The position numbers and the translations under genes are program-made. From Escherichia coli (GTDB lineage: Bacteria > Pseudomonadota > Gammaproteobacteria > Enterobacterales > Enterobacteriaceae), in assembly GCF_044324785.1 (NCBI RefSeq), contig NZ_CP172127.1: 64,000 bases of DNA; one strand, given 5' to 3'. Shown here piece after piece: positions 8,127-22,414 of the stretch (position 1 is the first letter of the stretch; each line of letters begins with the position of its first letter). The notes beneath the pieces were generated by a model. That model ran no database searches. It had not been told where the DNA came from and saw nothing but the letters and a program-made list of their open reading frames with translations.

Positions 8127-9047
8127 TTAAATGTATAACGACGATTCACCCACCGGGCGCGTTTTAAAGCGACGGTGGATCCAGAGGTACTGCTCCGGCG
8201 CGCGCATGATCTCTTTCTCGATAATCTTGTTCATATAGGCAGCGGCTTGATTTTCATCTGCCGGGTAGCCTTCCATCTCTGGGGTGATGTACAAACGATA
8301 TCCGCTGTAATCCGCTTTTCTTACCATCGTTACGGTTAACATGGCTGCGCCAGAGAGACGTGAAAGGACATACGTACCATTGGTTGTGGCGACATTTTCC
8401 ACCGCAAAGAACGGCGCGAAGGAGCTGCCTTTACGACCATAATCCTGATCGGGAGCAAACCATACCGCTTCACCTTTCTTCAGTGCACCGACAATGCCGC
8501 GTAGATTATTTCTGCCGATCATCGCTTTGTTAGAGCGCATGCGCCCACGGGTCTGCACCCATTCCATCAGCTGATTATTATGTGGACGATAGGTAGCCAT
8601 CATTGGTTGACAAAGTCCCATCACGCGGCCGCCCAGTTCCAGCGACATAAAATGGACGCCGACAACCATTACGCCGCGATTTTGCATTTGTGCGCGTTTA
8701 AGGTTATCCAGTCCTTCAACATCAAACCATTTGCGTACGCGACTGTCGGGCCAGAACCACGCCATGCCGGTTTCTACCAGCGCCATGCCGAGTGAACGAA
8801 AGTTTTCGGCAATCATCTTCTCGCGTTCTTCCGCAGAATGCTGCGGGAAGCAAAGTTCCAGGTTTTTACGGGCGATAGATTCACGCCGTTTCAGGAATGG
8901 TCGCGCCATTGCGCCAATACGCGTGCCGAGAAAGCAGAGAACAGGATAAGGAAGCTGTACCCAAAGCCAGAGTACACCAAGCCCAAACCATGTGAGCCAG
9001 TAGCGAGGATGTAGAAACTCGCGGGAAAATTTGCATTGTGGAAACAT
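8127..9047 (-). CDS. lpxP: lipid A palmitoleoyltransferase (cold-induced)
   Basis: ORF 8127-9113 contains the LpxP sequence; N-terminus MFPQCKFSREFLHPRYW places the start at 9047 (306 aa). Confidence 0.9.
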   Translation of the reverse strand: MFPQCKFSREFLHPRYWLTWFGLGVLWLWVQLPYPVLCFLGTRIGAMARPFLKRRESIARKNLELCFPQHSAEEREKMIAENFRSLGMALVETGMAWFWPDSRVRKWFDVEGLDNLKRAQMQNRGVMVVGVHFMSLELGGRVMGLCQPMMATYRPHNNQLMEWVQTRGRMRSNKAMIGRNNLRGIVGALKKGEAVWFAPDQDYGRKGSSFAPFFAVENVATTNGTYVLSRLSGAAMLTVTMVRKADYSGYRLYITPEMEGYPADENQAAAYMNKIIEKEIMRAPEQYLWIHRRFKTRPVGESSLYI

Positions 9048-9399
9048 AGTTACCTTCTGTAGATACGAATTGTTGTATCGCAGAAGATTCCATGTCGACA
9101 GCGGTACACTCAATTGGTTGGGCCATCATGTACGACAATGGTTCCTGTAAAGAGTGTAAAGACTAGTCAGGACATAACCACGAGGAGCATGAATGCGGTG
9201 GCTCTACTTTATCACTGGCTGACTGCTTTCAGCTACTGATTATTAATCGTGCAAAGTAAATATTTTTCCGCACGCAATAGCGTTGCATTTAACGTGCTGT
9301 TTTCATTGATGCTTAGCAAAAATTGCCAGAGGTTAAGGATTGTCTTACTATTAAAGTGACTGAAGTTACAGGTTTTTTAGCGCGGCAGGAGGTTGAGCT

Positions 9400-9642
9400 A
9401 TGATTTATTTATGGATGTTTCTCGCCCTGTGTATTGTCTGCGTAAGCGGCTACATTGGTCAGGTCCTGAACGTGGTATCGGCGGTCTCTTCTTTCTTCGG
9501 CATGGTGATCCTCGCTGCACTCATTTATTACTTCACCATGTGGTTAACTGGCGGTAATGAACTGGTGACGGGGATATTTATGTTTCTTGCCCCGGCTTGT
9601 GGCTTGATGATTCGCTTTATGGTGGGGTATGGCAGGCGCTAG
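9400..9642 (+). CDS. yfdY: small inner membrane protein YfdY
   Basis: 80-aa hydrophobic ORF in the expected position between lpxP and ypdI. Confidence 0.75.
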   Translation: MIYLWMFLALCIVCVSGYIGQVLNVVSAVSSFFGMVILAALIYYFTMWLTGGNELVTGIFMFLAPACGLMIRFMVGYGRR

Positions 9643-9718
9643 TGGGTCAGGATGGTTCATTTGGGCAGGTGTTCACATCAGCATCAGGCATGATTGTTCA
9701 CCTGCCATGTGACAGACG

Positions 9719-9994
9719 CTATCGCACAGGATGGATAAGATAATTCGCCTTTGTCGGAAAAGGGGGCGGAATTTCTTCTGTGAGGTTTAATGGTGGCGCA
9801 TCTTCTCTCAACTTAAACAAAATCGCCTGTGATGGCTGAAGTTTTGTAGAATGAGTTGTCGTCATCACTGACGTTTTTTCTGTCTCTTTATAGCTCGTCT
9901 CACTTCCACCACCAGAAATAGAAAATGCAAAAACATTGCATGCCATAATAGAGACCAATAAAAATAAGCTAAAAAGCATTAAGTTTACTTTCAT
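9719..9994 (-). CDS. ypdI: lipoprotein YpdI
   Basis: 91-aa ORF with signal peptide and lipobox-like motif (LLVSIMAC); position matches ypdI. Confidence 0.75.
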   Translation of the reverse strand: MKVNLMLFSLFLLVSIMACNVFAFSISGGGSETSYKETEKTSVMTTTHSTKLQPSQAILFKLREDAPPLNLTEEIPPPFPTKANYLIHPVR

Positions 9995-10135
9995 AGAAAG
10001 TTATCCTGAAAATGGTTCACTGAAAACCTACGACGTTATGGCTGTATTTACATATAATTAATCAGTATTTACATCGATATAATAAATGACATCTCTTTTT
10101 GGTATATAAGAATAGTTCTCTGTGACAGGAAGCAT

Positions 10136-10153
10136 ATTCCTACAATTGTAAGA
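10136..10153. promoter_or_regulatory. putative EvgA box upstream of yfdX
   Basis: TTCCTACA-AT-TGTAAGAC matches the 18-bp EvgA inverted-repeat consensus TTCPyTACA-N2-TGTAPuGAA as I recall it; about 135 bp upstream of the yfdX start. Confidence 0.6.
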
Positions 10154-10289
10154 CTAAAATACTTCTTGCGATAATAACTACAGCTGTAAGATAACCCTTT
10201 CAAAATGACCGTTGCTCTCTGATTTCTCATTTCATGCTCACCCAATATGATGGCGGCGTTTTCTAAAACTGTTAAAGAATGAGGTAAGT

Positions 10290-10922
10290 ATGAAACGTTT
10301 AATTATGGCTACGATGGTCACAGCAATTCTGGCATCTTCAACTGTATGGGCGGCTGATAATGCACCGGTAGCGGCACAACAGCAAACTCAGCAAGTTCAG
10401 CAAACCCAGAAAACGGCAGCAGCAGAGCGTATCTCTGAACAAGGTTTATATGCGATGCGTGACGTGCAGGTAGCGCGCCTGGCTCTGTTTCATGGCGATC
10501 CGGAAAAGGCAAAAGAACTGACCAATGAAGCTTCAGCTTTGTTGTCAGATGACAGTACCGAATGGGCAAAGTTCGCTAAGCCAGGTAAAAAGACCAATCT
10601 CAATGATGACCAATATATTGTCATTAATGCATCTGTCGGAATTTCTGAGAGTTATGTAGCGACACCCGAAAAAGAAGCCGCGATAAAAATTGCCAACGAA
10701 AAAATGGCGAAAGGGGATAAAAAGGGCGCAATGGAAGAGCTTCGCCTGGCCGGTGTTGGCGTAATGGAAAACCAATATCTGATGCCGCTTAAACAGACTC
10801 GTAATGCACTTGCTGATGCGCAGAAACTGCTTGATAAAAAGCAATACTACGAGGCAAACCTGGCGCTTAAAGGTGCTGAAGATGGAATCATCGTCGATAG
10901 CGAAGCACTGTTTGTGAACTAA
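10290..10922 (+). CDS. yfdX: periplasmic protein YfdX (EvgA-regulated)
   Basis: 210-aa ORF with N-terminal signal peptide; position and sequence consistent with YfdX. Confidence 0.88.
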
Positions 10923-11165
10923 AGCTGACAGGCAATATATTGAGGTAAAGGATTTAACTCCCTCCAGCCGACAATTTTTTATGACCACAATACGACAGGT
11001 TGTGGTCATAAAATTATTTGGCGCTCGCGGTTCTATAAACTCGCATTTTATCTTCCTCAAAGTAACCCGCAATAATTCCGTGTCATCACAAATCATTTAT
11101 TATGTTATGCTTTATGGTACGCTTTAAAAAGCGTAATCATACCCTTACTTGTAAATCACCGGCGC

Positions 11166-11183
11166 TTCTTACAGTTGTAAGAA
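11166..11183. promoter_or_regulatory. putative EvgA box of the frc-oxc-yfdV-yfdE promoter
   Basis: TTCTTACA-GT-TGTAAGAA is a perfect match to the EvgA inverted-repeat consensus; about 250 bp upstream of the frc start codon at 11435. Confidence 0.65.
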
Positions 11184-11446
11184 TAACATCACAAATGTCG
11201 CGGCTCTCTCTGATTACCGCGAACCAATATTTATCATATTCTTCTTTTCGTCCTCACTACTTACCATGCAGAAAGGAATTGGAAGTGGCGATGAAATGAT
11301 TATCAGCACTTGATACAGGAATTTAAAAATATCGAGTGCAGCTACGACGATATTTTGCGGATTATTTATAGAGAGCGTTATGCCTTAAATAAACGCTAAA
11401 TTAACATATATTTAATTAACTAATAGGTATTGCTATGTCAACTCCA

Positions 11447-11455
11447 CTTCAAGGA
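11447..11455. repeat. 9-bp target site duplication (left copy) of the IS903 insertion
   Basis: CTTCAAGGA immediately left of the IS, identical to 12513-12521. Confidence 0.9.
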
Positions 11456-11473
11456 GGCTTTGTTGAATAAATC
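11456..11473. repeat. IS903 terminal inverted repeat (transposase-distal end)
   Basis: GGCTTTGTTGAATAAATC, perfect reverse complement of 12495-12512. Confidence 0.9.
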
Positions 11474-11511
11474 AGATTTCGGGTAAGTCTCCCCCGTAGC
11501 GGGTTGTGTTT

Positions 11512-12435
11512 TCAGGCAATACGCACGCTTTCAGGCATACCTGCTTTCGTCATTTTGTTCAGCGCTCGTACCAGGGCCATAGCCTCCGCAACCTGACCAT
11601 CGTAGTCACGCAGCGTCAGTGAACCCCCGAACAGCTGTTTTACCCGGTACATCGCCGTTTCCGCTATCGAGCGACGGTTGTAATCTGTTGTCCATTTCCA
11701 CCGCGCATTACTCCCGGTCATTCGCTGATTAGCCACTGCACGGTTACGGTCTGCATATTCACCGGGCCAGTAACCCGCACCTTTTCGGGGAGGGATAAGC
11801 GCGCTGATTTTCTTACGCCGCAGTTCATCGTGACATAGCCGGGTATCGTAAGCGCCATCGGCGGCGGCTGACCTGATTTTCCGGTGGGTTTGCCGGATTA
11901 ACCCGGGGAAGGCCTCTGAGTCCGTAACGTTGTTCAGCGACAGGTCAGCGCAGATGATTTCATGTGTTTTACTGTCAACGGCGAGATGCAGCTTACGCCA
12001 GATACGGCGGCGTTCCTGGCCATGCTTTTTGACTTTCCACTCGCCTTCACCGAAGACCTTCAGCCCGGTGGAATCAATTACCAGGTGTGCGATTTCACCC
12101 CGGGTGGGCGTTTTGAAACTGACATTAACCGACTTTGCCCGCCTGCTGACACAGCTGTAATCCGGGCAGCGTAGCGGAACGTTCATCAGAGAAAAAATGG
12201 AATCAATAAAGCCCTGCGCAGCCCGCAGGGTCAGCCTGAATACGCGTTTAATGACCAGCACAGTAGTGATGGCAAGGTCAGAATAGCGCTGAGGTCTGCC
12301 TCGTGAAGAAGGTGTTGCTGACTCATACCAGGCCTGAATAGCTTCATCATCCAGCCAGAAAGTTATGGAGCCACGGTTGATGAGGGCTTTATTGTAGGTG
12401 GGCCAGTTGGTGATTTTGAACTTTTGCTTTGCCAC
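11512..12435 (-). CDS. IS903 transposase (DDE, IS5 family)
   Basis: Translation ...AKQKFKITNWPTYNKALINRGSITFWLDDEAIQAWYE...MPESVRIA matches the IS903 transposase; likely GTG start at 12435 gives 307 aa, whereas the track ORF begins at an upstream in-frame ATG at 12480. Confidence 0.9.
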   Translation of the reverse strand: MAKQKFKITNWPTYNKALINRGSITFWLDDEAIQAWYESATPSSRGRPQRYSDLAITTVLVIKRVFRLTLRAAQGFIDSIFSLMNVPLRCPDYSCVSRRAKSVNVSFKTPTRGEIAHLVIDSTGLKVFGEGEWKVKKHGQERRRIWRKLHLAVDSKTHEIICADLSLNNVTDSEAFPGLIRQTHRKIRSAAADGAYDTRLCHDELRRKKISALIPPRKGAGYWPGEYADRNRAVANQRMTGSNARWKWTTDYNRRSIAETAMYRVKQLFGGSLTLRDYDGQVAEAMALVRALNKMTKAGMPESVRIA

Positions 12436-12494
12436 GGAACGGTCTGCGTTGTCGGGAAGATACGTGATCTGATCCTTCAACTCAGCAAAAGTTC

Positions 12495-12512
12495 GATTTA
12501 TTCAACAAAGCC
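12495..12512. repeat. IS903 terminal inverted repeat (transposase-proximal end)
   Basis: GATTTATTCAACAAAGCC, reverse complement of 11456-11473. Confidence 0.9.
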
Positions 12513-12521
12513 CTTCAAGGA
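12513..12521. repeat. 9-bp target site duplication (right copy) of the IS903 insertion
   Basis: CTTCAAGGA identical to 11447-11455; a 9-bp duplication is what I recall for IS903. Confidence 0.9.
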
Positions 12522-13804
12522 ATTAAAGTTCTCGATTTCACCGGTGTGCAATCTGGCCCATCTTGTACTCAGATGCTGGCCTGGTTTGGCGCTGACGTCA
12601 TTAAAATTGAACGTCCCGGCGTTGGTGACGTAACGCGTCACCAGCTGCGAGATATTCCTGATATCGATGCGCTTTACTTCACCATGCTTAACAGTAACAA
12701 ACGTTCTATTGAATTAAATACCAAAACAGCGGAAGGCAAAGAGGTAATGGAAAAGCTGATCCGCGAAGCTGATATCTTAGTCGAGAACTTTCATCCAGGG
12801 GCCATTGATCACATGGGCTTCACCTGGGAGCATATTCAAGAAATCAATCCACGTCTGATTTTTGGTTCGATCAAAGGGTTTGATGAGTGTTCGCCTTATG
12901 TGAATGTAAAAGCCTATGAAAACGTTGCTCAGGCAGCGGGTGGTGCGGCATCCACTACAGGTTTTTGGGACGGCCCGCCGCTGGTAAGCGCTGCAGCGTT
13001 GGGTGACAGCAACACCGGAATGCATTTGCTGATCGGTTTACTTGCTGCTTTGCTGCATCGCGAAAAAACGGGGCGTGGGCAACGAGTTACCATGTCAATG
13101 CAGGATGCCGTGTTGAACCTTTGCCGCGTGAAATTACGCGACCAGCAGCGTCTCGATAAGTTGGGGTATCTGGAAGAATACCCGCAGTATCCGAATGGCA
13201 CATTTGGTGATGCAGTTCCCCGCGGTGGTAATGCGGGTGGTGGCGGTCAGCCTGGCTGGATCCTGAAATGTAAAGGCTGGGAAACCGATCCTAATGCCTA
13301 TATTTATTTCACTATTCAGGAGCAAAACTGGGAAAACACCTGTAAAGCTATCGGCAAACCAGAATGGATTACCGATCCGGCATATAGTACAGCTCATGCC
13401 CGACAGCCACATATTTTCGATATTTTTGCTGAAATCGAAAAATACACTGTCACTATTGATAAACATGAAGCGGTGGCCTATTTGACTCAGTTTGATATTC
13501 CTTGTGCACCGGTTTTAAGTATGAAAGAAATTTCACTTGATCCCTCTTTGCGCCAAAGTGGCAGTGTTGTCGAAGTGGAACAACCGTTGCGTGGAAAATA
13601 TCTGACAGTTGGTTGTCCAATGAAATTCTCTGCCTTTACGCCGGATATTAAAGCTGCGCCGCTATTAGGTGAACATACCGCTGCTGTATTGCAGGAGTTG
13701 GGTTATAGCGACGATGAAATTGCTGCAATGAAGCAAAACCACGCCATCTGATATTAACGGGGGCTTCTGGCTCCCAATTTATAAAAATTTCGAGGTTATT
13801 AATC

Positions 13805-15499
13805 ATGTCAGATCAACTTCAAATGACAGATGGTATGCATATCATCGTTGAAGCATTAAAACAGAATAATATTGACACTATTTATGGTGTTGTAGGTATT
13901 CCTGTGACGGATATGGCACGCCATGCCCAGGCGGAAGGCATTCGTTATATTGGTTTTCGTCATGAGCAGTCGGCAGGCTATGCCGCTGCGGCAAGCGGTT
14001 TTCTTACCCAAAAACCAGGGATCTGCCTGACAGTGTCTGCGCCAGGATTCCTCAATGGTTTGACCGCATTGGCCAACGCAACGGTAAATGGTTTTCCGAT
14101 GATCATGATTAGCGGCTCCAGCGACCGCGCGATCGTCGACCTACAGCAAGGTGATTATGAAGAGCTGGACCAAATGAATGCGGCAAAACCGTATGCCAAA
14201 GCAGCATTCCGCGTTAATCAGCCGCAGGATCTTGGCATTGCATTGGCACGCGCTATCCGGGTCTCAGTATCGGGTCGCCCTGGCGGAGTTTATCTTGATT
14301 TGCCTGCAAATGTCCTGGCCGCGACGATGGAAAAAGACGAAGCGTTAACCACGATTGTAAAAGTTGAAAATCCGTCGCCAGCATTATTGCCATGCCCGAA
14401 GTCAGTCACTAGCGCAATTTCGCTTTTAGCAAAAGCTGAACGGCCATTAATTATCCTTGGCAAAGGCGCGGCGTATTCACAAGCTGATGAACAGCTTCGT
14501 GAATTTATTGAAAGTGCTCAGATCCCATTCCTGCCAATGTCTATGGCGAAAGGGATCCTCGAAGATACGCATCCACTTTCTGCGGCAGCTGCGCGTTCGT
14601 TTGCCCTGGCAAATGCTGACGTTGTCATGCTTGTTGGTGCACGACTGAATTGGTTACTGGCGCACGGTAAAAAAGGATGGGCGGCAGATACACAGTTTAT
14701 TCAACTGGAAATTGAACCGCAGGAAATTGACAGCAACCGCCCCATTGCTGTGCCAGTCGTTGGTGATATTGCATCCAGTATGCAAGGTATACTGGCAGAA
14801 TTGAAACAAAACACATTTACGACTCCACTGGTATGGCGCGATATTTTAAATATCCACAAGCAGCAAAATGCACAAAAAATGCATGAAAAATTAAGTACAG
14901 ATACTCAACCATTAAATTACTTTAATGCATTAAGTGCTGTGCGCGACGTATTGCGCGAGAACCAGGATATTTATTTAGTTAATGAAGGGGCAAATACCCT
15001 GGATAATGCACGAAATATTATTGATATGTATAAACCACGTCGTCGTCTGGATTGTGGCACCTGGGGTGTCATGGGCATCGGTATGGGCTATGCCATCGGT
15101 GCTAGCGTGACTTCTGGTTCTCCGGTTGTCGCCATTGAAGGTGATAGTGCTTTTGGTTTCAGTGGGATGGAGATTGAAACGATTTGTCGATATAACCTGC
15201 CGGTGACGATCGTTATTTTTAATAATGGCGGCATTTACAGAGGAGACGGTGTTGATCTCAGTGGCGCTGGTGCACCATCACCAACAGATCTATTGCACCA
15301 TGCAAGGTATGACAAATTAATGGATGCGTTTCGTGGCGTTGGCTATAACGTCACTACGACAGATGAACTTCGTCATGCTTTAACCACCGGTATTCAGTCG
15401 CGCAAACCGACCATTATTAATGTGGTCATCGACCCTGCAGCAGGAACTGAAAGTGGCCATATTACCAAACTTAACCCAAAACAAGTCGCTGGTAATTAA
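13805..15499 (+). CDS. oxc: oxalyl-CoA decarboxylase (thiamine diphosphate-dependent)
   Basis: 564-aa ORF recognised as Oxc; directly downstream of frc. Confidence 0.92.
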
Positions 15500-15567
15500 A
15501 TACTGACATCGTCTCCTCTTGCCAACTCATTATCGATGGTGAGGGGACCCTTATCGGAAATACTATT

Positions 15568-16512
15568 ATGCTAACATTTTTTATTGGCGATTTATTGCCT
15601 ATTATCGTAATCATGCTGTTGGGTTATTTTAGCGGCAGACGAGAAACTTTTTCAGAAGATCAAGCCCGGGCATTTAATAAACTGGTATTAAACTACGCTC
15701 TTCCTGCGGCTCTATTTGTATCTATTACCCGGGCAAACAGGGAAATGATTTTTGCGGACACTCGTCTGACCCTTGTATCACTTGTGGTTATTGTCGGATG
15801 TTTCTTTTTCTCCTGGTTCGGTTGCTACAAATTTTTTAAACGTACTCATGCAGAAGCAGCAGTATGTGCATTAATTGCAGGTTCACCTACCATTGGATTC
15901 CTGGGATTTGCAGTTCTCGATCCTATTTATGGTGATTCCGTATCAACAGGTTTAGTTGTAGCAATTATTTCTATTATTGTTAACGCAATTACTATTCCTA
16001 TTGGTCTGTATTTGCTGAATCCTTCCTCAGGAGCGGATGGTAAGAAGAATAGTAATCTGAGCGCATTAATTTCTGCGGCAAAGGAGCCAGTAGTATGGGC
16101 ACCTGTTCTGGCAACGATCCTGGTGTTGGTTGGGGTAAAAATTCCGTCAGCATGGGACCCAACCTTTAATCTGATTGCGAAGGCTAACTCAGGGGTAGCG
16201 GTATTCGCTGCGGGGTTGACTCTGGCTGCACATAAATTCGAGTTCAGTGCCGAAATTGCTTATAACACCTTCCTGAAGCTGATTCTGATGCCACTGGCGC
16301 TGCTTCTCGTTGGTATGGCATGTCATTTGAACAGCGAACATTTGCAGATGATGGTACTGGCAGGCGCTTTACCGCCGGCATTCTCCGGAATCATTATTGC
16401 CAGCCGGTTTAATGTCTACACCCGCACTGGTACAGCATCATTGGCTGTGAGCGTACTGGGCTTTGTCGTCACGGCTCCCTTGTGGATTTATGTCAGTCGA
16501 CTGGTTTCATAA
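15568..16512 (+). CDS. yfdV: AEC-family membrane transporter
   Basis: 314-aa polytopic membrane ORF between oxc and yfdE. Confidence 0.88.
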
Positions 16513-16585
16513 TTAATCATGTTATTGATTTTACATAAATGCCGAAGTGTCTTTTCACCTTCGGCTTTTTTCAAGGCATAAGCAA

Positions 16586-17731
16586 ATGACAAATAATGAA
16601 TGCAAAGGGCCGTTTGAAGGCTTATTAGTTATCGATATGACACATGTCCTTAATGGACCTTTCGGAACTCAACTTCTTTGTAATATGGGCGCAAGGGTAA
16701 TTAAAGTTGAGCCGCCGGGTCATGGTGATGATACCCGCACATTTGGTCCCTATGTGGATGGGCAGTCACTCTATTACAGTTTTATTAATCATGGCAAAGA
16801 GAGTGTGGTTCTTGATTTAAAGAATGCTCACGATAAAAGTATATTTATAAATATGCTTAAACAAGCTGATGTATTAGCTGAGAATTTTCGCCCAGGTACA
16901 ATGGAAAAACTGGGGTTTTCATGGGAAACGCTACAAGAAATCAACCCGCGTCTCATATATGCTTCATCGTCAGGTTTTGGGCATACCGGCCCGCTAAAAG
17001 ATGCTCCAGCCTACGATACCATCATTCAGGCAATGAGCGGGATAATGATGGAAACAGGGTACCCTGATGCTCCGCCAGTGCGCGTGGGTACCTCTCTTGC
17101 GGATTTATGTGGCGGTGTCTATTTATTCAGCGGAATAGTGAGTGCACTTTATGGCCGCGAAAAGAGCCAGAGAGGGGCGCATGTCGATATAGCGATGTTT
17201 GATGCCACGCTGAGTTTTCTGGAGCATGGTCTGATGGCATATATTGCGACAGGGAAGTCACCACAACGCCTGGGAAATCGCCATCCCTACATGGCACCTT
17301 TTGATGTTTTTGATACTCAGGATAAGCCGATTACGATTTGTTGTGGTAATGACAAGCTTTTTTCTGCGTTATGCCAGGCACTGGAGCTTACGGAACTGGT
17401 TAATGATCCCCGATTTAGCAGCAATATTTTACGCGTACAAAACCAGGCTATTCTTAAACAATATATTGAGCGAACGTTAAAAACACAGGCAGCTGAAGTT
17501 TGGTTAGCCAAAATACATGAAGTTGGTGTGCCCGTCGCGCCGTTATTAAGTGTGGCTGAGGCCATTAATTTGCCACAAACTCAGGCGAGAAATATGTTGA
17601 TTGAAGCCGGGGGAATAATGATGCCAGGTAATCCGATAAAAATCAGCGGCTGCGCGGACCCGCATGTTATGCCGGGAGCGGCAACGCTCGACCAGCATGG
17701 GGAACAAATTCGCCAGGAATTCTCATCGTAA
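16586..17731 (+). CDS. yfdE: CoA-transferase family III protein (acetyl-CoA:oxalate CoA-transferase)
   Basis: Track ORF 16547-17731; the YfdE N-terminus MTNNECKGPFEGLLVIDMTH puts the start at 16586 (381 aa); paralogous to Frc. Confidence 0.88.
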   Translation: MTNNECKGPFEGLLVIDMTHVLNGPFGTQLLCNMGARVIKVEPPGHGDDTRTFGPYVDGQSLYYSFINHGKESVVLDLKNAHDKSIFINMLKQADVLAENFRPGTMEKLGFSWETLQEINPRLIYASSSGFGHTGPLKDAPAYDTIIQAMSGIMMETGYPDAPPVRVGTSLADLCGGVYLFSGIVSALYGREKSQRGAHVDIAMFDATLSFLEHGLMAYIATGKSPQRLGNRHPYMAPFDVFDTQDKPITICCGNDKLFSALCQALELTELVNDPRFSSNILRVQNQAILKQYIERTLKTQAAEVWLAKIHEVGVPVAPLLSVAEAINLPQTQARNMLIEAGGIMMPGNPIKISGCADPHVMPGAATLDQHGEQIRQEFSS

Positions 17732-17753
17732 ATGTTAGATATGCTGGTAAATA

Positions 17754-17780
17754 GCTCCCACATTTGAACATTGTGGGAGC
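17754..17780. terminator. hairpin between convergent yfdE and evgS (probable bidirectional terminator)
   Basis: GCTCCCACA (17754-17762), 9-nt loop, TGTGGGAGC (17772-17780); T-rich sequence on the plus-strand side only moderately convincing. Confidence 0.5.
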
Positions 17781-17786
17781 CGCTAT

Positions 17787-20700
17787 TTAGTCATTTTGTT
17801 GACAGAAAACAGCAATCTCCTGGTCTAACTCTGCAATGTGTTCTTTAACAGAGTTCAGCAACTTAAGAATTTCAGGCTTGCTGTCATCTGAAACGGGCGT
17901 TATTTCTAACTGATGGCTAATATTAATCAACTTTTGCAAATTCAGGATGTTAGCCGCACCGTGGATGCGATGAATACACTGATGGAAAGTTCTGTTGTCG
18001 CCAGCTTCTAGTGCATGAAACGCAGCGGGTAGATCTTTATGCGTTTCATGCTGGAAAGTCATGAGAATCTCCTGCATCAGTTGTAGATCGTTCGCCGTAT
18101 TATTTTTCAGGGCCTCGATATCAAGGTGGCGATACTGAGGTGCAATATGCGCAACCTGGTGTAACTGACTTAAATGTGTTTTCAGTACATCCAGGGTCAA
18201 CGGTTTGAACAAACATAAGTTCATGCCGCAATTTAACCCTTTTTCACGTTCGTTAGCCTGTGCGTTGGCTGTAAGCCCCCAGATGGGTAAGGAAGAATTT
18301 TGCTCACGGAGTTTGCGAGTCAACTCAAAACCATCCATATTCGGCATATTAACGTCAGTAATAAGCAGATCATAATGTTGCATACTGACTTTGTGTAGCG
18401 CTTGCACACCATCAGTTGCTTCATCAACATCATATCCTAATAGGTTTAGCTGGCGTTTGAGTAATAGCCTGTTGGTCGGATGATCATCCGCTATTAATAT
18501 GCTCAACTTTTCAGGGAGTGTCATAGGTTGTTCTGCTTTTGCCTCGACAGTCGCCACTTGTTGGGTAATTTCTACCGGGATTGTGATCGTAAATGTCGTT
18601 CCTATGCCTGGATGACTTTCTAATGATAAATCGCCCTGCATGTTTTTAATTAATTCTTTGCAGATCATTAAGCCTAAACCAGAACCTGTTTGCTGACGAC
18701 CTGCACTTGTTTGGCTATAGCGTTTAAACAGTTGTTGTTGTTCTTCCTGCGATAATCCACTTCCAGAATCCATAATCGTCATTTTGATAACAGCGTGGTT
18801 GTCATCAATGTGACCCAGGGAGGTCGTAATTTTTACTGCCCCCTCGGTAGTAAATTTAAGAGCATTGCTCAGTAAATTAGATAAGACCTGCTTAAACGCC
18901 TGAGGGTCGATCTTAACCTGGTAATGTTCTGGAAACGTACTGCTGCAACTTAATGCGATGGATTTGCTTGCAGCAATCGCACCGAAAGAGTGACAAGTGT
19001 TCTGGACTAAAGTAGGGATGTCGACCCATTGTGGTTGAAGTTGATAGTTACCCGACTCAATTTTGTCGACATCAAGGATTTCACCAATTAAGCCGAGGAG
19101 TGATTGTCCGGTGGCGTAGGCAAGTGAAATCGCCTCCACCCGTTGCTCCTTGCTAAGACCAGAACCCGACAGAAGTTCGAGGAAGCCCATAATGGAGCTT
19201 ATTGGTGTTCTTATTTCGTGACTCATTGTTGCCAGAAACTGGCTTTTTGCGACAGTTGCATTGATCGCTTTATTTCTCTCTACTTCGAGTGCATGAATTA
19301 AATCACGCGTCTCGGTAATATCTTGCCAACCACAAATATAAACAGCATGATCGCTGGCTGGCAGATTGCATAATGTATGCCAGTGATTAATGCATCTTTT
19401 CTCGATGCCATTATCAATTTCAAATACCTGTGTGTATATTGTTCGATTTTCTTTCGTTTCTGCTGTGACTTCATGCGCATTAGAAAAAACATCTTTAAAG
19501 GGTGAGTCACTGTTTTCTAATGGTAACATTGCATTTTTGTAGTAATCCGCAGTGAAATAATGTTCAAAAGCACTATTATGACTAATGACATTACCTTGCC
19601 AGTTTACAACATAAGTTGGATTCGGTAAGGAATCCGAGAGTGCTTTTCGGAATGATATTTGGTTTTCTAAATCACCCTGAATGACTTTACGACGACGAAC
19701 TGAGCGTAACAGGTAGAATCCCCATAAAAGGCTACTGCCAACTAATAAAACGGATAATGTCGTGACAATATAAAATTGCTCGCTATAGAGGTCCCATGTG
19801 TCAATGGTCACATTGGGCATTTTAATCCATTTTTCCGTCAGGCGCAGAACTTCGCTTGGGGGAATTGCATTCAGTGCTTTATTAATAATATCCTTAAGTT
19901 CCGGTTCTCCGCGAGGAAAAGCGAACGAAAGCGATGCATTCTGAACGCCGGGAATAAGAAAATGATAAAGTTCATTAGGATAGTAATGGTCGATCATGTA
20001 ACGCGAATTTAGCTGTGTCGCGACCAGAGCATCAAGTTCACCTTCCTTGACCTTGTGAAATGCAGCACTAGCGTTATCGACTTTTATCCACTCTACCTCC
20101 GGATACATCTCTTTTAATTGCGAATGAAGCTCATAATAATATGGAATGGCAACTTTCATTCCTTTTTTTAATGTTTGTTCACTGTCAGGCGCTTTTTGCA
20201 TGACAAAAACGTAAGGCGTTGTTATGAAGGCTTCAGCAAATGAAACATTATTTTCTCGATCTTCACTATAAATAGCGGCGGGCAATATATCCCATCCACC
20301 GGGGTTAAGCTGTGTCCCCGCATGAATATTGTGTGAAACGGTGATCGGAGAAAAATTTAAACCTGTTTGCAAGGTAATAATATTAAGAATATCACCCATC
20401 ACGCCCCGAACTGAGCCAGTTTCATCTGTCATAGAATAGGGTGGCGAGTAAGGATTTTCCAGCACCTTTAAATCGGGATGCTGCTTAATCCACTGTTTTT
20501 CATGTTCAGTGAGTTCTAATGGTTTGTTCAGAAAGGCCAGGTTTCCTGTATCAAGCCAATTTTGTGATACTTCATAGCGAACTTCATTTGTTAAAGCATC
20601 AACAAACCGATTGAGTACTTCATTAAGAACGACTGAATCTTTTCTGGTTAAGAAAAAGTTATATTGACGCGGCGAGTTATAATATTTCACTACATTTAAG

Positions 20701-21380
20701 GAGTGAGTGAAATAGCGGGAAATCATACTGCTGGTAATAATGTTACTACCAATAAAGTAATCATTCTGTCCGGCTGAGACGGATGCTAATGCCTGATATA
20801 AATTTGTAAAAGAGATAATTGTTGCTTTTGGAAATGATTGATGAATTACCTCGTCTGGAGGGTAATTTGCTACCCGAGCAATATTTACTGGTTTTGATGA
20901 GGTAAGCGGTCTCATTGAATCGTGAAGGGTGGTGACCAGCGCCGGAAAGGTAATTATCAGCGGTTTGGTTGCAGCAATGTCATCATTAAGAGGCGGCGAA
21001 GCAACTAAATGTGATAACACTATATCGACTTCACCTTCTTCCAGCGCGTCCATTGCTTTTTGATGATCGGCGTATTCCCGGAGTGTTAATTTGATATTTA
21101 ACGCTCTTTTTAAAAGATTTAAATAATCAGCATTAATACCACGAACCCGTTGCTGCGAATCGGTATGCAACAACGTAGCCGTTTGGGACTTGTGTACTGC
21201 AATCACAAGATTTTTTTTGCTCGCTAACCAACGTAATTCCTTGTTGCTCAGACGTAGTGGATCAAGTGTGACACGGTTGTTACTACTGATGCCACGATAT
21301 TCGATGTAATCTTCGTCTGCGAAACTTATGGTCGACCAAAGACCACAACAGAGAAGAAAAATATAGGGTAAAAACTTCAT
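17787..21380 (-). CDS. evgS: hybrid sensor histidine kinase EvgS (acid and drug resistance two-component system)
   Basis: 1197-aa ORF with periplasmic binding-protein-like domains, histidine kinase core, receiver and HPt domains; recognised as EvgS. Confidence 0.95.
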   Translation of the reverse strand: MKFLPYIFLLCCGLWSTISFADEDYIEYRGISSNNRVTLDPLRLSNKELRWLASKKNLVIAVHKSQTATLLHTDSQQRVRGINADYLNLLKRALNIKLTLREYADHQKAMDALEEGEVDIVLSHLVASPPLNDDIAATKPLIITFPALVTTLHDSMRPLTSSKPVNIARVANYPPDEVIHQSFPKATIISFTNLYQALASVSAGQNDYFIGSNIITSSMISRYFTHSLNVVKYYNSPRQYNFFLTRKDSVVLNEVLNRFVDALTNEVRYEVSQNWLDTGNLAFLNKPLELTEHEKQWIKQHPDLKVLENPYSPPYSMTDETGSVRGVMGDILNIITLQTGLNFSPITVSHNIHAGTQLNPGGWDILPAAIYSEDRENNVSFAEAFITTPYVFVMQKAPDSEQTLKKGMKVAIPYYYELHSQLKEMYPEVEWIKVDNASAAFHKVKEGELDALVATQLNSRYMIDHYYPNELYHFLIPGVQNASLSFAFPRGEPELKDIINKALNAIPPSEVLRLTEKWIKMPNVTIDTWDLYSEQFYIVTTLSVLLVGSSLLWGFYLLRSVRRRKVIQGDLENQISFRKALSDSLPNPTYVVNWQGNVISHNSAFEHYFTADYYKNAMLPLENSDSPFKDVFSNAHEVTAETKENRTIYTQVFEIDNGIEKRCINHWHTLCNLPASDHAVYICGWQDITETRDLIHALEVERNKAINATVAKSQFLATMSHEIRTPISSIMGFLELLSGSGLSKEQRVEAISLAYATGQSLLGLIGEILDVDKIESGNYQLQPQWVDIPTLVQNTCHSFGAIAASKSIALSCSSTFPEHYQVKIDPQAFKQVLSNLLSNALKFTTEGAVKITTSLGHIDDNHAVIKMTIMDSGSGLSQEEQQQLFKRYSQTSAGRQQTGSGLGLMICKELIKNMQGDLSLESHPGIGTTFTITIPVEITQQVATVEAKAEQPMTLPEKLSILIADDHPTNRLLLKRQLNLLGYDVDEATDGVQALHKVSMQHYDLLITDVNMPNMDGFELTRKLREQNSSLPIWGLTANAQANEREKGLNCGMNLCLFKPLTLDVLKTHLSQLHQVAHIAPQYRHLDIEALKNNTANDLQLMQEILMTFQHETHKDLPAAFHALEAGDNRTFHQCIHRIHGAANILNLQKLINISHQLEITPVSDDSKPEILKLLNSVKEHIAELDQEIAVFCQQND

Positions 21381-21384
21381 GTGG

Positions 21385-21999
21385 TTAGCCGATTTTGTTA
21401 CGTTGTGCGAATGTGTAAAGATCCATCAGTGATTTACATTCTAATTTTTCCATCAGGCGACTTTTATAAGTGCTGACAGTTTTGTTGCTGATGAACATTT
21501 TTTCAGCAATGTCATTATTATCCTTGCCATCAAGAATATATCGCATGACACTAATTTCTTGTTTCGATAAGGAGTCGAGTTTTTGCTGGTCGGACGTTAA
21601 ACTTCCAACAAACCGGTTGAGAGAGAAGGGGAAATAGCAGTAGCCATTTTTTGCAGCTTCAATAGCCGCAATGATATTGTTCATGCCTTCTTTTTTACTC
21701 ACGAATCCATTAGCGCCAGCATCAGCACAATGTTTCCCGTAAAAATGGTCATTTTTAGCGGAGACGATAATAATAATTCCGCTATATTGACGCTTCCTTA
21801 GCGTTTCTAACACCTGGATACCGTTAACTCCGGGGATATCGACATCAATGATGACGATATCAGGCTTAAGTGTTTCCACCCGCTGAACGGCGCTTCCGCC
21901 TTCAGTCAACTCTGCTAAGATTTCAATATCGTTTTTGATCAATAAATTACGAATAGCTGCGATAGCAAGAGGATGGTCATCAATAATTATTGCGTTCAT
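21385..21999 (-). CDS. evgA: response regulator EvgA (LuxR/NarL family)
   Basis: 204-aa ORF MNAIIIDDHPLAIAAIRNLL... recognised as EvgA; directly upstream of evgS on the same strand. Confidence 0.95.
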   Translation of the reverse strand: MNAIIIDDHPLAIAAIRNLLIKNDIEILAELTEGGSAVQRVETLKPDIVIIDVDIPGVNGIQVLETLRKRQYSGIIIIVSAKNDHFYGKHCADAGANGFVSKKEGMNNIIAAIEAAKNGYCYFPFSLNRFVGSLTSDQQKLDSLSKQEISVMRYILDGKDNNDIAEKMFISNKTVSTYKSRLMEKLECKSLMDLYTFAQRNKIG

Positions 22000-22222
22000 A
22001 GATTATTCCCTTTGCAATGAAGCATCTCCCTTCTCCCTGTAGTAATACAGACATAAGGCATCATCTCATTTTCTCAATAAAAATAAGAAAATTTGAGCTT
22101 CCTTTAAGATAATTCGACAAGTATACCATATAAATAGTCGGCATAAATGAAATGTCAACAATAAAATCAGGGATTGTACCGATGATTTATAGTTTCACAT
22201 TAGCACTATAAGTCTTCTCACT

Positions 22223-22240
22223 AATCCTACAGGCGTAAGA
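22223..22240. promoter_or_regulatory. putative EvgA box in the evgA-emrK divergent intergenic region
   Basis: ATCCTACA-GG-CGTAAGAA, 16 of 18 matches to the EvgA consensus inverted repeat; lies between the divergent evgA and emrK genes. Confidence 0.55.
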
Positions 22241-22414
22241 ATTGTATTGCAAAAGCCACGGTTTAGTCCTCTGTTGTTTCTTTTGCACCTCATTTAAATT
22301 AGGCCTCCAACGTTCCTGGGATAATGTGCAACACATGCACTGTGTTTGATATGAAGAATGAATACTCTTTTCATTCAATTCATAAATTTCATCTATGCGA
22401 AATGAGAGATAATA

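Follow-up and report, generated by a model that had tools for sequence, protein, structure and literature searches.

The classical polar IS insertions, those of IS1, IS2 and others in gal and lac, are known for Rho-dependent polarity, and in Klebsiella the mgrB gene is inactivated by insertion of IS903B. The same element has likewise inactivated rmpA and wcaJ in Klebsiella, as a simple gene-disrupting mutagen (PMC11363291), and this is also how it acts on frc in the Escherichia coli contig NZ_CP172127.1 (assembly GCF_044324785.1), of which a stretch of 64,000 nucleotides, hereafter the window, was analyzed. The Klebsiella cases concern a different host and different targets and are accompanied by clear selected phenotypes (capsule loss, colistin resistance), which the frc insertion is not known to confer. 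With the classical polar insertions, frc::IS903B shares a premature stop, a long untranslated stretch and promoter-less distal genes; it differs in that polarity is here a prediction, and in that the distal genes yfdV-yfdE may have a weak promoter of their own. A third parallel is the capture of IS5-family transposons by H-NS, in which IS903, itself an IS5-family element, favored H-NS-bound DNA (19 of 32 insertions in the wild type; PMC11335895). The insertions compiled here also cluster in an AT-rich, H-NS-marked island; that study does not mention the EvgAS island, however, the H-NS marks come from K-12, and insertions in natural isolates are confounded by clonality and selection.

The EvgA box is said to have been defined by Masuda and Church in 2003 as an 18-bp inverted repeat with the consensus TTCYTACA-NN-TGTARGAA. 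Upstream of frc, the gene that opens an acid-induced operon for oxalate breakdown, positions 11166-11183 of the window (plus strand) read TTCTTACAGTTGTAAGAA, the sole exact match to the consensus TTCYTACANNTGTARGAA in the 64-kb window, and no match at all occurred in 100 shuffled controls. The original prediction had described this site as a perfect consensus palindrome; the match to the consensus is indeed exact, but the 18-mer as a whole is not a perfect palindrome, since its two perfectly complementary 8-nt arms flank a non-palindromic GT center. The frc ATG follows at a distance of 269 nt, and the sequence of the box and this distance are unchanged in K-12, 19KM1831, AR_0019, 0H26, and AH04. 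Near-consensus boxes, all on the plus strand, were confined to the other expected EvgA targets: an inverted repeat with one mismatch (10137-10154) and a weaker one with three mismatches (10175-10192) upstream of yfdX, and a repeat with two mismatches in the evgA-emrK spacer (22224-22241); the consensus scan found no second EvgA-like box between 11184 and 22223. EvgA activates yfdX and yfdWUVE via inverted repeats that precede both, which supports the consensus indirectly (PMC3720670); the genes most strongly induced in evgS-constitutive mutants include frc and oxc (PMC4283999), and acid stress jointly increases frc, oxc, yfdV, and yfdX (PMC10746267). The site at 11166-11183, with the same sequence and position in K-12, is therefore read as the predicted EvgA box of an EvgA-activated promoter.

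The genes around this promoter are preserved. An intact yfdX (10290-10922, plus strand; 99.5% amino acid identity to K-12) is followed by a strong hairpin with a T-rich tail (10977-11013, plus strand; -25.4 kcal/mol, z = -5.46 upon folding), a likely terminator that separates the yfdX and frc transcription units. Downstream of frc, the plus strand carries intact copies of oxc, encoding oxalyl-CoA decarboxylase (13805-15499, with its own Shine-Dalgarno sequence), of yfdV (15568-16512), and of yfdE, encoding acetyl-CoA:oxalate CoA-transferase (16586-17731). On the minus strand follow evgS (17787-21380), full length with 1197 amino acids and 97.8% identity to K-12, and evgA (21385-21999), identical to K-12 at the amino acid level (100%); the neighboring EvgA targets yfdX and emrKY are sequence-intact in the window. 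An Rfam scan of positions 9000-23000 returned nothing relevant.

The inserted element spans positions 11456-12512 (minus strand; 1057 bp) and is complete, with perfect 18-bp terminal inverted repeats, GGCTTTGTTGAATAAATC, at 11456-11473 and 12495-12512; it is flanked by a 9-bp target-site duplication, CTTCAAGGA, whose left copy (11447-11455) corresponds to frc codons 5-7 and whose right copy occupies 12513-12521. Since its full length is 100% identical to many records of the “IS5-like element IS903B family” on Enterobacterales plasmids, the element, a genuine IS that had been taken for a copy of IS903, is assigned by sequence identity to IS903B (IS5 family, IS903 group) and not to IS903 proper. 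Its transposase ORF, encoding a single DDE enzyme of the IS5 family and correctly described earlier as antisense to the operon, is intact on the minus strand (11512-12480; 322 amino acids from TTG in the PGAP annotation, with the classical 307-amino-acid form starting at GTG 12435), is identical or near-identical to annotated IS903B transposases, and matches the NF033579 profile over its full length (357 bits; cutoff 140). The window contains a single IS903B copy.

The IS had been thought to separate the promoter region from the rest of the operon; it does lie downstream of the EvgA box, but it is positioned within the frc coding sequence itself, between codons 7 and 8. What precedes it is a stub ORF on the plus strand (11435-11470) that encodes MSTPLQGGFVE in seven native and four IS-derived codons, with its TAA stop in the IS inverted repeat. 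What follows it is the frc remainder (12522-13751, plus strand; codons 8-416 and the stop), which has neither a start codon nor a ribosome-binding site of its own; within the remainder, no in-frame ATG, GTG or TTG occurs ahead of GTG 12546 (approximately codon 16). The IS-free, reconstructed frc ORF scores 785 bits against the equivalog TIGR03253 (cutoff 504); as it stands in the window, frc is split after codon 7 with no usable start and lacks a full-length TIGR03253 ORF. The frc gene is a pseudogene and null allele, in which a stub of 11 codons is followed by a remainder that lacks a start. Because the IS lies inside frc, this knockout is the first effect of the insertion; the original prediction was silent on it as the primary consequence. 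The oxalate-induced acid tolerance response reportedly depends on Frc (PMC3720670), so that this branch is probably lost irrespective of oxc expression. Once the IS and one copy of the duplication are removed, the locus is gap-free and collinear with IS-free strains (26 mismatches in 1822 positions against 19KM1831, 43 in 1822 against K-12), and Frc residues 5-416, encoded by the duplicated codons 5-7 at 12513-12521 and the remainder, are 100% identical to K-12 Frc; the preservation of the remainder indicates that the insertion is likely recent. As a separate caution for annotation, PGAP labels N-terminally truncated or IS-fused ORFs as “frc: formyl-CoA transferase” in two comparison genomes, with no pseudogene flag.

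For the downstream genes, the relevant distance is the 2335 nt of untranslated sequence between the stub's stop codon (11468-11470) and the oxc start at 13805. Its plus strand includes C-rich, G-poor tracts within the IS (C/G 1.4-1.7 at 11516-11775) and within the frc remainder (C/G about 1.5-1.8 at 12634-12711 and 13284-13465), ratios that serve as a heuristic only. On the plus strand of the IS, where fold z-scores were near zero, the search for intrinsic terminators turned up no convincing candidate; any transcriptional block would therefore need to be Rho-dependent. The premature stop, the approximately 2.3 kb of untranslated RNA and the C-rich tracts together suggest such polarity, and it is plausible that EvgA-driven oxc expression would be lost in this way. 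The predicted polar block of oxc, yfdV, and yfdE is thus borne out in its architecture, whereas the block itself is deduced from sequence, and its extension to yfdV and yfdE needs qualification. In K-12, the oxc-yfdV spacer contains a sigma-70 genomic-SELEX site, CTGACA-19-CATTAT (PMC3946193); this holoenzyme motif is conserved in the window (15503-15533, plus strand), and for this reason yfdV-yfdE may retain a promoter of their own and may be only partly dependent on that of frc. Minor-sigma SELEX peaks were also found in vitro inside frc and oxc (PMC5493296).

Dependence on an outward promoter within the IS, and the counter-case of an independent promoter between the IS and oxc, had both been contemplated at the outset. 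A consensus scan with a threshold of 9 out of 12 matches yielded no plus-strand promoter within the IS or the frc-oxc spacer, and nothing consensus-like in this 53-nt spacer. The one candidate is a hybrid promoter across the right IS junction (12502-12529), where TCAACA (12502), the end of the inverted repeat, could serve as -35 element at a spacing of 16 nt from TAAAGT in the flanking DNA; at 8 of 12 matches it falls below the scan threshold. Together with the sigma-70 and minor-sigma SELEX sites, this weak hybrid could sustain EvgA-independent expression. These observations bear on the alternative that the insertion constitutes a regulatory rewiring, in which oxc-yfdV-yfdE would still be well expressed in the absence of Frc, with transcription either reading efficiently through from the EvgA promoter or starting at an outward promoter of IS or hybrid origin, and Oxc, YfdV and YfdE would be kept under altered control. 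The lack of a convincing intrinsic terminator on the IS plus strand, the hybrid site, and the ribosome-binding site of oxc are compatible with this scenario, as is the fact that YfdE needs no Frc to produce oxalyl-CoA from acetyl-CoA (PMC3720670). Yet the hybrid site is weak, a literature search for outward promoters of the enterobacterial elements IS903 and IS903B returned no report (the only matches concerned IS903-group elements of Paracoccus), and the long untranslated, partly C-rich RNA favors Rho termination; moreover, other IS903B insertions disrupt oxc, yfdV, yfdE, evgS, and evgA and give no sign of selection for expression. On balance, rewiring of this kind is unlikely.

The same conclusion emerges from the distribution of IS903-group insertions across E. 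coli. The exact allele, an insertion at frc position +21, was found in none of 5,426 complete E. coli genomes when both junctions were used as queries, and the exact 37-mer junction was absent from the GTDB species representatives; the allele is new among complete E. coli genomes, and the kind of mutation is ordinary. At least 13 other independent IS903B insertions in the same orientation, each with its own 9-bp duplication, were mapped among the 40 best matches to window positions 1-25000; among these matches all of them fall within ypdI-emrY and none within the adjacent 9.7 kb (p = 0.0012). In the opposite orientation, approximately 15 further IS903-group events were recognized, and an island-wide orientation control, for which a 2.6-kb query combined anchors and IS, detected inverted copies in 33 genomes. 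Counting both orientations, at least about 28 further independent insertions of IS903-group elements have hit ypdI, yfdX, frc, oxc, yfdV, yfdE, evgS, evgA, emrK, and emrY; a 9-bp duplication likewise flanks 14 other copies that were mapped. The island has a GC content of 42.6%, compared to 51% in its flanks, and the enrichment estimate, uncorrected for clonality, sets approximately 70 observed genomes against approximately 14 expected. This island-wide pattern, extending in both orientations to evgS and evgA, lends no support to the proposal that part of the EvgAS regulon has been rewired, and looks like target-biased erosion instead of a specific regulatory innovation.

Within frc, three other sets of genomes provide the closest counterparts: AR_0019 (NZ_CP024889), the 0H15-0H26 series, and the AH02/AH04/CT01 series carry IS903B in the same gene and orientation, with 1-4 nucleotide differences over 1057 bp, and as in the window these are simple insertions with 9-bp duplications. 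Their insertion points (+37, +136, and +696, as opposed to +21 in the window, with that of AR_0019 located 16 bp downstream of the window insertion) and their duplications differ, and the four frc::IS903B alleles are therefore independent events. In all four the transposase is antisense to frc, and the inverted-IS control found no genome with an inverted IS903B within approximately 700 bp of the frc start; since the genome search joined same-strand pieces only, the shared orientation is in part an artifact. An orientation rule for the island as a whole was considered and rejected, as both orientations are common; the 4:0 split in frc is weak.

This recurrence could be taken to reflect adaptive loss, where positive selection in certain niches favors inactivation of frc or, more broadly, of the EvgAS island, accounting both for the repeated events and for the shared orientation in frc. 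In its favor are the four independent alleles with concordant orientation, which contrast with a 10:15 split elsewhere in the island (Fisher p = 0.04), and the origin of several carriers from food-animal or meat-plant sources. Once the index case is left out, however, the orientation signal declines to p = 0.09, and ascertainment is incomplete; insertions in frc show no excess over those elsewhere in the island (P = 0.10-0.45), both orientations are common outside of frc, and the clustering is already explained by H-NS-guided targeting, which leaves adaptive loss with a small chance of being correct. A more elaborate variant, to be regarded as speculative and very improbable, starts from the four antisense frc alleles and the dozens of IS903-group hits in the EvgAS island and would be a selected and possibly reversible switch that removes Frc/EvgAS outputs in particular niches; EvgA-driven antisense RNA would then couple the transposase to acid signaling, or the junction promoter would bring oxc-yfdVE under new control. 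An assembly artifact, in which repeat collapse or chimeric assembly misplaced an IS copy into frc, is hardly credible: IS903B is multi-copy in many genomes and can mislead assemblers, but the junctions are clean, the 9-bp duplication is perfect, removal of the IS restores the empty site exactly, closed genomes contain comparable alleles, each with its own duplication, and the window holds only one IS903B copy.

The recurrence is best read as erosion of the island through H-NS-guided targeting by IS elements, because the insertions recur across an AT-rich region, H-NS marks the yfdX-frc and emrK-evgA spacers in K-12 (PMC3946193), and IS903 prefers H-NS-bound DNA. The insertion in frc is probably the result of a single, recent and simple transposition of IS903B into frc at codons 7/8, with a knockout of frc and inferred polarity downstream, and an instance of this island-wide, H-NS-linked bias. 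Under this explanation, EvgA-activated transcripts of frc would cross the IS antisense to the transposase and continue through the frc remainder, about 2.3 kb without translation, before reaching oxc; Rho-dependent termination would probably remove most of the EvgA-dependent expression of oxc and much of that of yfdV-yfdE, and any residual expression would be owed to read-through or to weak, EvgA-independent promoters beyond the IS. The event itself would be one example of how IS903-group elements in general tend to insert into this AT-rich island, which is, by the K-12 data, partly H-NS-associated, and not a rewiring built for regulation.

For the window strain, the predicted net phenotype is the loss of the Frc/Oxc branch of oxalate-dependent acid tolerance, while evgA, evgS and the neighboring targets yfdX and emrKY are sequence-intact. 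For E. coli in general, the yfdX-frc-oxc-yfdVE-evgSA-emrKY island emerges as a repeated target of IS903-group elements in natural isolates, with evgS and evgA included, a recurrence that agrees with the H-NS “transposon capture” model put forward recently and suggests that carriage of IS903B, often plasmid-borne, can erode an island of acid-resistance and efflux genes.

The IS element splitting frc in the EvgAS-linked oxalate locus of this E. coli occupies 11456-12512 (1057 bp); its 18-bp terminal inverted repeats are perfect, and the 9-bp target site CTTCAAGGA is duplicated on either side. The element is identical over its full length (100%) to many annotated IS903B copies on plasmids of Klebsiella, Escherichia, Enterobacter and others, and is the only IS903B copy in the window. 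Its intact IS5-family transposase ORF (11512-12480) lies on the minus strand, antisense to the operon as originally predicted. The 9-bp duplication corresponds to codons 5-7 of frc, which places the IS inside the coding sequence; the element had been described as an IS903 lying between the promoter and the rest of the operon, and it does lie past the promoter, but as an IS903B within frc itself. Since deletion of the IS and one duplication copy restores gap-free collinearity with IS-free strains, the insertion is evidently a simple and recent transposition; the protein encoded by the frc remainder matches residues 5-416 of K-12 Frc at 100% identity.

The upstream frc stub (MSTPLQGGFVE) ends at a TAA within the IS inverted repeat (11468-11470), and downstream no ATG, GTG or TTG occurs in frame before a GTG at 12546 (approximately codon 16), nor is there a ribosome-binding site, so that frc is, judged from its sequence, a pseudogene. 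A product starting at this GTG would be without the conserved N-terminal strand, and we infer that it is inactive. Frc and Oxc are both reportedly required for the acid tolerance response that oxalate induces (PMC3720670); this branch is probably lost, whatever oxc transcription does. In two loci of other strains with their own frc::IS903B alleles, PGAP names the truncated frc remainders "frc: formyl-CoA transferase" (L001 4261-5496, 411 aa, starting inside the IS end; L002 4360-5496, 378 aa), neither with a pseudogene flag; automated annotation can therefore conceal such knockouts.

The neighbouring genes of frc, which itself lies between yfdX (10290-10922) and oxc (13805-15499), are all intact; yfdV (15568-16512) and yfdE (16586-17731) follow oxc, then evgS and evgA on the strand opposite to yfdX-yfdE, with emrKY beyond. 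EvgS, at 97.8% amino acid identity to K-12, is noticeably more diverged than its neighbours (98.7-100%). The sequence TTCTTACAGTTGTAAGAA, at exactly 11166-11183, is the only one in the 64 kb to fit the EvgA-box consensus TTCYTACANNTGTARGAA without a mismatch; this consensus is reportedly that of Masuda and Church (2003), and it gave matches in 0 of 100 shuffles of the sequence analysed here. The original prediction of a perfect consensus palindrome upstream of the frc start was accurate in position and consensus, but the two perfectly complementary 8-nt arms are separated by a GT centre. The box lies 269 nt before the frc ATG, and the same sequence is found at this distance in K-12 and four other strains. 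Near-matches in the window are confined to the remaining expected EvgA targets, with two upstream of yfdX (10137 and 10175) and one between evgA and emrK (22224); no further EvgA-like box was found between 11166-11183 and 22224. Upstream of yfdX, at 10137-10192, two EvgA-box-like repeats stand in tandem (starts 38 bp apart, one and three mismatches), suggesting a putative double site at the yfdX promoter. According to a published summary, inverted repeats bound by EvgA precede yfdX and yfdWUVE (PMC3720670).

Co-induction of frc, oxc, yfdV and yfdX has been reported with acid (PMC10746267) and with constitutive EvgS (PMC4283999). Since a strong terminator-like hairpin lies 3' of yfdX, the box at 11166 is likely the entry point of EvgA control for frc and the genes downstream. 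The predicted polar block of oxc, yfdV and yfdE is favoured by the missing second box, by the 53-nt frc-oxc spacer, which holds no consensus-like promoter, and by the 2335 nt of untranslated RNA between the premature stop and oxc, in which tracts rich in C and poor in G lie at 11516-11775 and within what remains of frc. Long untranslated RNA with such tracts is the classical setting of Rho-dependent polarity. Other observations speak against a block that is complete: the operon strand of the IS showed no convincing intrinsic terminator, a weak hybrid promoter candidate (TCAACA-16-TAAAGT, 8/12) spans the right junction, a sigma-70 SELEX site reported for K-12 yfdV (PMC3946193) is conserved at 15503-15533, and minor-sigma SELEX peaks are listed within frc and oxc (PMC5493296). 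Loss of EvgA-dependent oxc expression would be the most likely outcome, a reading we hold with moderate confidence, and yfdV-yfdE may retain some independent expression. The spacer also contains a 7-bp GC-rich hairpin (13759-13775, GGGGGCU...GGCUCCC) with an A/U-rich tail; the hairpin is not a canonical terminator (z = -1.0) and may serve in RNA processing or stabilisation, or as a partial frc-oxc attenuator.

The window allele was absent from 5,426 complete E. coli genomes and from GTDB species representatives; the best identity of window positions 1-32000 to these complete genomes was 98.2-98.4% over 11-19 kb, which points to an E. coli lineage that has been sampled sparsely. Beyond this one, frc::IS903B occurs as three more independent alleles, at nucleotide offsets within the frc coding sequence of +37 (AR_0019), +136 (0H series) and +696 (AH02, AH04, CT01); the insertion at +21 is a new allele of an already known kind. 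In all four, the transposase is antisense to frc, and no inverted IS903B was found within ~700 bp of the frc start; this 4:0 orientation is weakly unusual (p = 0.04-0.09), and enrichment of frc relative to the surrounding island was not seen (P = 0.10-0.45). Strains 0H15-0H26 (Alberta) have IS903B twice in the island, at frc +136 and inverted in evgS (L002, H152-H157), so that sensor and oxalate branch are both disrupted.

Searching with the whole 25-kb stretch, same-orientation IS903B was found in or near the region in at least 40 genomes. Among the matches listed, ten further same-orientation insertions of independent origin were mapped, all bearing a 9-bp duplication of their own: three in evgS and the others in ypdI, yfdX, oxc, yfdV, evgA, emrK and emrY. 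The 13 same-orientation events of other genomes among these matches all fall in ypdI-emrY; the neighbouring 9.7 kb has none (p = 0.0012). A control search of the same region with the IS inverted added 33 genomes and about 15 events (yfdX, its terminator, oxc, yfdV, yfdE, evgS, the evgA-emrK region, emrK and emrY); with both orientations common outside frc, no island-wide orientation rule applies. Together, and besides the one in the window, about 28 independent IS903-group insertions in both orientations occur in this island in other genomes (window 9700-25000; L001-L003, L006-L016; matches listed), at least seven of them in evgS; insertions in evgS and evgA would wholly abolish EvgAS signalling. 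Carrier genomes number ~70 vs. ~14 expected under uniform insertion, a rough count that ignores clonality. In strain 730V1 (L016 1374-3603), an IS5 and an inverted IS903B adjoin in the yfdX-frc spacer, the latter within the loop of the hairpin that forms the terminator of yfdX, with TACGACAGG as its duplication; lying upstream of the EvgA box, it leaves the linkage of box and frc intact.

The island has 42.6% GC vs. about 51% in its flanks, and in K-12 H-NS marks lie at the yfdX-frc and emrK-evgA spacers (PMC3946193); IS903 insertion is reported to prefer H-NS-bound DNA, in a study without mention of the ypdI-emrY island (PMC11335895). The insertion in frc is real, and would represent a recent, ordinary IS903B knockout with Rho-dependent polarity on oxc as a probable consequence; it joins many further IS903-group hits in this island, which is AT-rich and, in K-12, marked by H-NS. 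A natural rewiring of the EvgAS regulon as a specific adaptation, as originally proposed, is unsupported; erosion of the island by target-biased transposition fits better, and the island-wide recurrence of IS903-group hits, of modest interest, agrees with the published H-NS "transposon capture" model.
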